A program made the position numbers and the translations under genes. From the IMG/VR virus record IMGVR_UViG_2778261631_000002: a stretch of 64,000 nt of DNA. One strand, given 5' to 3'. The notes beneath the pieces are model-generated. The model searched no databases. It saw nothing but the letters and a program-made list of their open reading frames with translations, and was not told the DNA's origin. Below, piece after piece: positions 22,727 through 22,793 of the stretch. The DNA is from a virus (lineage: Duplodnaviria; Heunggongvirae; Uroviricota; Caudoviricetes). How positions within the stretch are numbered: the stretch's first letter is position 1; each line of letters begins with the position of its first letter.

Positions 22727-22793
22727 CAATGCTCCATAAGGGTAAATTTATGAAGATCCATATCTTCAACCGTTTCCTGGTCATGGAGCATTG
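22727..22793. repeat. nested inverted repeat at the island boundary
   Basis: CAATGCTCCAT … ATGGAGCATTG (11-bp perfect arms, 45-bp spacer) enclosing the palindrome GAAGATCCATATCTTC. Confidence 0.55.

Follow-up and report, generated by a model that had tools for sequence, protein, structure and literature searches.

A nested inverted repeat in the cargo of a P1-like phage-plasmid: most likely an ordinary transcript-end hairpin between converging genes

The res-mod region is a recognised variable region in P1-like phage-plasmids (PMC9603915). A nested inverted repeat located close to the edge of this region in one such genome raises the question of whether it marks the site of cargo exchange, binds a protein, or acts in the transcripts of the adjacent genes. 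The stretch of DNA analyzed here (the window, 64,000 nucleotides of the IMG/VR record IMGVR_UViG_2778261631_000002) is 100% identical to CP056895.1, the plasmid pRHBSTW-00046_2 from an Escherichia coli wastewater isolate, which belongs to the IncY P1-like phage-plasmids. A preliminary description had placed the repeat exactly at the junction of the backbone and the cargo island and had offered three identities for it: the terminator of the darB operon, a recombination or insertion hotspot, and a binding site for the adjacent LuxR-type regulator. The analysis described below indicates that this cargo-borne element is most probably an ordinary hairpin at the transcript ends of two converging genes.

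Structure and position of the repeat

The repeat lies within the 144-bp spacer between two converging 3' ends, those of the plus-strand gene lxc (stop at 22679) and the minus-strand gene for the LuxR-type regulator (stop at 22824). The features of the locus are as follows.

15193-21960, plus strand: darB (record annotation)
21994-22434, plus strand: ulx (record annotation)
22431-22679, plus strand: lxc, last gene of the darB-ulx-lxc backbone block, with its stop codon at 22677-22679
22680-22726: first 47 bp of the cargo, from the lxc stop to the left arm
22727-22737: left arm of the repeat, CAATGCTCCAT (extended arm, 22724-22739)
22741-22777: interior of the hairpin, with a middle helix (22741-22746 paired with 22773-22777) around the inner palindrome
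22751-22768: inner palindrome, GAAGATCCATATCTTC, in its fuller form TGAAGAT-CCAT-ATCTTCA
22783-22793: right arm of the repeat, ATGGAGCATTG (extended arm, 22781-22796)
22794-22806, plus strand: U-rich tail, ATAGTTTTATCAT (AUAGUUUUAUCAU), directly 3' of the stem
22816-22831: second TGAAG...CTTCA palindrome (TGAAG-TTATCA-CTTCA), spanning the stop codon of the LuxR-type gene
22824-23165, minus strand: LuxR/GerE-type regulator gene, 113 aa as annotated (Pfam GerE, E = 1.3e-07)
23271-26561, minus strand: Ag43-like autotransporter gene
beyond the autotransporter gene, all on the minus strand: mat, ref, cra, and cre (record annotation)

The arms and the inner palindrome are found exactly where the preliminary description had them, the arms CAATGCTCCAT and ATGGAGCATTG being perfectly complementary over 11 bp and 45 nt apart. 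They extend imperfectly to 14 nt (22724-22737 and 22783-22796, 93% complementary) and, in the minus-strand RNA, reach 16 pairs if G.U pairs are counted. Relative to the regulator stop codon, the hairpin starts 27 nt and the perfect arm 30 nt downstream. RNA folding, which had been proposed as a check, bore out the structure: for a 96-nt stretch, a stable three-tier hairpin is predicted on both strands (-30.9 and -33.7 kcal/mol), far better than in shuffled sequences (z = -4.8 and -4.7, with none of the 200 shuffles as good).

By its length alone, an 11-bp repeat is unremarkable, because 17 perfect inverted repeats of this length or longer, with spacers of up to 60 nt, are present in the window (versus ∼0.8 expected from shuffled windows), including loxP, C1 operators, and terminators. 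The loxP site (arms ATAACTTCGTATA) is located at 30489-30522, and the P1 C1 operator consensus is matched at 15 sites across the window, both as expected for a P1-type genome. An arm of the repeat resembles ATTGCTC, yet none of the 15 matches to ATTGCTCTAATAAATTT (with up to 3 mismatches) falls within 22680-22830, and a C1 operator was rejected as its identity. The TGAAG...CTTCA pattern has only two copies in 64 kb (0.22 expected), both at the repeat locus and 65 bp apart. In the second of these, at 22816-22831, both half-sites are changed together in the E. coli plasmid pCFSAN004178P_01 (TGCAG...CTGCA), and the pairing is lost again in a near-identical IMG/VR copy; this palindrome may be separate from the functional unit of the hairpin.

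Coding and promoter functions of the same stretch were also considered and rejected. The 14-codon plus-strand open reading frame MKIHIFNRFLVMEH (22750-22794) is preceded by a Shine-Dalgarno-like AAGGG, but in the variants of the element described below its frame is shifted by a 1-nt insertion (L005) or its stop codon is lost (L003), and its substitutions show no third-position bias in the alignments. A 102-aa minus-strand frame that runs antisense through lxc (22476-22784) is reduced to 8 codons in L002 and broken by a 10-bp deletion in L003. A candidate antisense promoter, TGGTCA-17-TATCAT (22778-22806), is one of 4 matches in the region, compared to 3.5 in shuffled sequences, and its spacing is lost in L003.

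The backbone boundary and the cargo slot

The lxc gene of the window is 97-98% identical to the lxc genes of P1 (where it is annotated under this name), P7, and RCS47. Backbone homology, as judged by megablast, ends at 22677-22685 in 18 of 18 P1-type phage records and in all 59 P1-like plasmids that were sampled from the 699 records matching the lxc region, with the window's own record left out. In the alignment with P1, similarity disappears directly past the lxc stop codon. Sliding identity to the four element-carrying relatives is ∼97% through ulx and lxc and 50-90% right after the stop, a level that is characteristic of the regulator gene, i.e., of the cargo, and not of the backbone. Because the left arm starts 42-50 bp past the end of the homology, the repeat is inside the cargo; its placement exactly at the junction was off by ∼47 bp, and the true boundary is the lxc stop codon. 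Judging from these comparisons, the hairpin is part of the cargo module and not of the P1 backbone.

Comparison of the window with P1, RCS47, pYJ4-b, pTX376-2, and pEA4_97 identifies the interval between lxc and mat (22680-27039) as a cargo-swap slot, whose lxc-side edge always coincides with the lxc stop codon (within 6 bp). This slot holds mod and res in P1, is empty in RCS47, and carries a SIR2-family gene in pYJ4-b and a PIN-domain gene in pTX376-2. In the window and in pCFSAN004178P_01, it is occupied by the LuxR-type regulator and the Ag43-like autotransporter, which, in the window, are the sole genes encoded by the island and fill the place of mod and res; a recombinase is absent. In Escherichia albertii pEA4_97, the same LuxR-type regulator is followed by a fimbrial operon that replaces the autotransporter.

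These data bear directly on the proposal that the repeat is a recombination or insertion site marking cargo exchange. The edge of the res-mod region, which is known to vary among P1-like phage-plasmids (PMC9603915), is indeed less than 50 bp from the element, and foreign DNA interrupts the spacer of the element in two E. albertii contigs. However, every mapped breakpoint, in the 18 phages and the 59 plasmids alike, is at the lxc stop codon, 42-50 bp away, as is the step in sequence identity, and the repeat is absent from the relatives with res-mod, SIR2, PIN, or no cargo, that is, wherever the LuxR-type gene is missing. The preliminary description had named just these observations, breakpoints away from the repeat and its absence from relatives with different cargo, as ones that would speak against its idea. 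Furthermore, no second copy of the arm sequence was found elsewhere in the window with up to one mismatch, no repeat joining both ends of the island was found within 22600-27300, leaving the element without a partner at the mat end, and the island encodes no recombinase. A role as an exchange site is therefore extremely improbable, and cargo exchange by recombination in the conserved flanking genes fits the data better than a dedicated exchange site. The anatomy of one P1-like cargo-swap locus is thereby corrected, with the lxc stop codon forming the lxc-side boundary in hundreds of relatives.

The element is confined to a small group of sequences. A sensitive blastn search with the 151-bp spacer retrieved 3 of 72,556 plasmid records, i.e., two besides the window: E. 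albertii pEA4_97 (L002; 78% identity) and E. coli pCFSAN004178P_01 (∼80%). The only match among 5,426 complete E. coli genomes was in the strain that carries the latter plasmid. Two more variants, L004 and L005, came from contigs encoding homologs of the regulator, and a search of genome contigs with the regulator protein yielded no additional ones. Scans for the exact pattern recovered one true copy (a near-duplicate) in IMG/VR and one true copy (a near-duplicate) plus one chance match in metagenomes. Altogether, the element is represented by five sequence variants, each adjoining the LuxR-type gene or a close homolog of it, and in every intact case it is located between lxc and the regulator gene. 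With such numbers it is essentially single-copy, and its assignment to dispersed small repeats (MITE or REP) was rejected.

Two E. albertii contigs (L006 and L007) carry an interrupted element, cut inside the spacer, just past the inner hairpin, by a 113-bp sequence (4437-4550 onward). This unannotated sequence is present in 252 plasmid records from many Enterobacterales, has an IS903-like element next to it, and resembles the terminus of an unrecognised mobile element. The locus of the related plasmid of E. coli 06-00048 is also found within the 5.5-Mb chromosome record of the same strain (NZ_CP015229.1, 1884229-1886191), which represents either an integrated phage-plasmid or a chimeric assembly.

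Distant homologs of the regulator (64-67% identity) adjoin other adhesin or secretion genes, and their downstream sequences are unrelated to that of the window; no such repeat was found downstream of them. Members of this family of small GerE-type regulators (about 100-115 aa) were found only in Escherichia, where they form 12 protein clusters (loci L008-L021). At the distant-homolog loci that were fetched with enough flanking sequence, the regulator lies beside genes for surface or secreted factors, including autotransporters, a chaperone-usher fimbrial operon, a TadF-type pilus gene, and an RTX toxin export system.

Conservation of the stem and strand signals

The arms of the repeat are more conserved than the sequence between and around them. 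In comparisons of the window with each of the four relatives, 0 to 4 of the 22 arm positions differ, versus 20-48% of positions in the remaining spacer (Fisher p = 0.001-0.06 per pairwise comparison). The outer stem is paired in 96% of cells across the five variants and contains compensatory double changes from T:A to G:C in pEA4_97 and from G:C to A:T in pCFSAN004178P_01, a level of compensation that was matched by 16 of 500 column shuffles. When the 3' partners were slid by 1 to 3 columns, pairing dropped from 93.5% to 27-49%. The stem also keeps its pairing in L005 despite a 1-nt insertion in the interior. At the base of the inner stem, TGAAG and CTTCA are invariant, and the top pairs are lost in some variants. 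Folding predictions for all five variants include the outer stem and the inner hairpin, and four of the five show the complete three-tier fold on either strand; L003 and L004 have a reduced middle tier. Divergence of the element among the variants tracks that of the cargo, not of the backbone. The covariation support is modest because only five variants exist, too few for strong covariation statistics or a useful covariance model, and template-switch correction of near-palindromes can yield compensatory changes without selection. On the whole, these five sequences offer moderate evidence of selection acting on the stem structure.

The signals that could assign the structure to one strand point in different directions. 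Three stem positions form G.U pairs in RNA of the minus (regulator-sense) strand and A-C mismatches on the plus strand, so that 72 of 75 cells are paired on the minus strand versus 65 of 75 on the plus strand; the minus-strand fold is also the more stable one in four of the five variants. However, one wobble in the inner stem favors the plus strand, and with three positions against one, the bias is not significant. Directly past the stem, the plus strand reads AUAGUUUU, with 5 U residues in the first 8 nt. Comparable tails were recognized by eye in four of the five variants, and the tail motif TTTATCAT (CTTATCAT in L005) is likewise kept in four of the five. The minus strand continues past the stem with UCGGAUGG and has no U-tract. 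The two kinds of strand evidence disagree, the U-rich tail suggesting the plus strand and the G.U wobbles suggesting the minus strand.

Candidate functions of the hairpin

The sequences that other P1-like genomes carry at the same spot provide the most direct comparison. RCS47, in which the slot is empty, has a GC-rich hairpin between lxc and mat, GCCCGG-TCTGTCG-CCGGGC with flanking T runs, which is a classical bidirectional terminator. In pYJ4-b, where the SIR2-family gene converges on lxc, a canonical terminator, TTTATCGGGCAG-TTTTAT-CTGCCCGATAAATTTTT, is located directly past lxc. No hairpin follows lxc in pTX376-2, where the PIN-domain gene is co-directional, and in P1, the lxc gene is followed by the mod promoters. 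Hence, convergence of a gene on lxc, or an empty slot, goes together with a transcript-ending hairpin at this spot, and the element studied here would be the equivalent of these hairpins in the LuxR-type cargo.

The analysis shows how the element is built, where it lies, that it is linked to the cargo gene, and that it has been conserved through compensatory changes; a role in termination or stabilization, on one strand or the other, is inferred. It is fairly likely that the transcripts of lxc and of the cargo, which converge here, are ended or insulated by this RNA hairpin. Read on the plus strand, it would form a terminator-like stem with the U-rich tail behind it, which would halt read-through from lxc before this could continue antisense through the genes of the regulator and the autotransporter. 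Read on the minus strand, it would leave the regulator mRNA with a stable hairpin at its 3' end, a barrier to 3'-exonucleases that might also make transcription pause or end ahead of an antisense run into lxc and darB.

As a terminator, the element is atypical. Its position at the 3' end of a transcription unit and the length of its stem (11 perfect bp, within the usual ∼5-14 bp) agree with this function, the stem being less G+C-rich than typical (5 of 11 pairs are G:C). The arms, however, are separated by 45 nt that hold two further helices, rather than by a loop of 3-8 nt, and a terminator consensus scan of 22300-23400 called no terminator. Since the loop is not short and the scan does not call it, the element may work like a terminator without being a textbook member of the class. 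The suggestion that it terminates the darB operon is still plausible: it agrees with the convergent 3' ends, the U-rich tail, and the terminators at the same spot in relatives, but not with the 45-nt loop and the negative scan. The intrinsic terminators of RCS47 and pYJ4-b share with the element a location directly past lxc, opposite a converging gene, and a stable stem, and the plus strand of the element carries a U-rich tail. Unlike both of them, the element has the long, structured interior in place of a short loop, an AU-rich stem, and no A-tract/U-tract symmetry for bidirectional action, and it has no sequence in common with them. Protective 3' stem-loops that lack a U-tract include REP-type hairpins and the stem-loops that set the processed 3' ends of Rho-terminated E. 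coli mRNAs. The element resembles these in being a long stable hairpin shortly past a stop codon, with no U run on its minus strand, but it differs from the REP-type hairpins in being single-copy and not a member of a dispersed family.

The alternatives that place the function elsewhere each account for some of these features. The hairpin could be a regulatory structure in the 3' untranslated region (UTR) of the LuxR-type mRNA, which would act on the minus strand only and set the level of the regulator through processing, stability, or release of a small RNA instead of terminating transcription. Its start 27 nt past the regulator stop codon (30 nt to the perfect arm), the three stem wobbles that pair on the minus strand only, the greater stability of minus-strand folds in four of the five variants, and a three-tier shape that exceeds the needs of a terminator all agree with this idea. 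However, the excess of wobbles (three versus one) is not significant, distant homologs of the regulator have no such element downstream, and Rfam contains no match: the covariance models of Rfam 15 produced only chance-level hits in 22300-23300 (E of at least 0.6, far below the gathering scores). This reading is rather unlikely, and its most elaborate form is less likely still, namely, that the three-tier hairpin is a dedicated regulatory RNA of a mobile cargo module, which sets the level of the LuxR-type adhesin regulator and at the same time shields lxc, a phage immunity-modulator gene, from antisense transcription. Such an RNA could be, for example, a processing or stability switch in the 3' UTR or a small RNA derived from it, and, if it existed, would be a portable "insulator" that lets foreign cargo occupy the lxc-mat slot without disturbing the phage. 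At the other extreme, the element could be a functionless near-palindrome that hitchhikes with the cargo gene, its arms being kept alike by template-switch correction. There are just two compensatory events, each of which could be a single mutation copied across the arms, and only a very small, young group of plasmids carries the element. Yet in each of the four comparisons the arms have changed markedly less than the spacer around them, the pairing withstands the interior insertion in L005, the inner and middle helices are kept as well, and the position is that of terminators in relatives, which makes neutrality unlikely.

A DNA site for the LuxR-type regulator or some other factor, as the preliminary description had suggested, would consist of an operator pair formed by the 18-bp dyad TGAAGAT-N4-ATCTTCA and the adjacent TGAAG-N6-CTTCA. 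Two such dyads within 80 bp, when 0.22 are expected in 64 kb, are consistent with this arrangement, as are the invariant TGAAG/CTTCA half-sites of the inner dyad around a variable center, a pattern seen in many operators. Binding sites of GerE-type dimers are typically of the size of the inner dyad (18-20 bp), which, similarly to lux-box-type operators (LuxR/GerE), adjoins a GerE-family gene. However, the pair is located downstream of the regulator gene and not at a promoter. No similar dyad was found upstream of either cargo gene; the sole other one in the cargo, with one mismatch, is at the 3' end of the autotransporter gene (23273-23287). The joint change of both half-sites of the second dyad in pCFSAN004178P_01 suits a hairpin better than a shared operator, and a protein site would not need outer arms 45 bp apart with compensatory changes. 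In contrast to lux-box-type operators, the inner dyad is embedded in a larger covarying stem and has no counterpart at a promoter, and the element is absent next to distant homologs of the regulator. Binding of the regulator thus finds little place here, and the operator pair is improbable.

With these alternatives weighed, the transcript-end hairpin carried by the cargo is preferred. The repeat has little importance on its own; what it illustrates is that each convergent cargo, and the empty site, brings its own hairpin, which would provide transcript insulation at the seam. If the hairpin does insulate in both directions, the locus would be a small illustration of how the transcription of accessory modules is fitted to that of a phage backbone.

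Several other features of the cargo were noted. The region upstream of the Ag43-like autotransporter gene (26562-27040) is 27-33% G+C and contains no GATC sites, so the Dam/OxyR phase-variation switch of the chromosomal flu (Ag43) gene is unusable for this autotransporter. The LuxR-type protein encoded next door is the obvious candidate for its regulator. An unannotated plus-strand frame at 26845-27045 could encode a 66-aa hydrophobic protein, which was not found by tblastn in the related loci. Another perfect 11-bp inverted repeat, ATAAAGAGCAG and CTGCTCTTTAT with a 13-nt spacer (23218-23252, minus strand), sits between the autotransporter stop (23271) and the regulator start (23165). With an A-run before the stem and UUUAU where the stem ends, it is terminator- or attenuator-like, and the presence of such a repeat between the two cargo genes suggests that the regulator gene has its own promoter.
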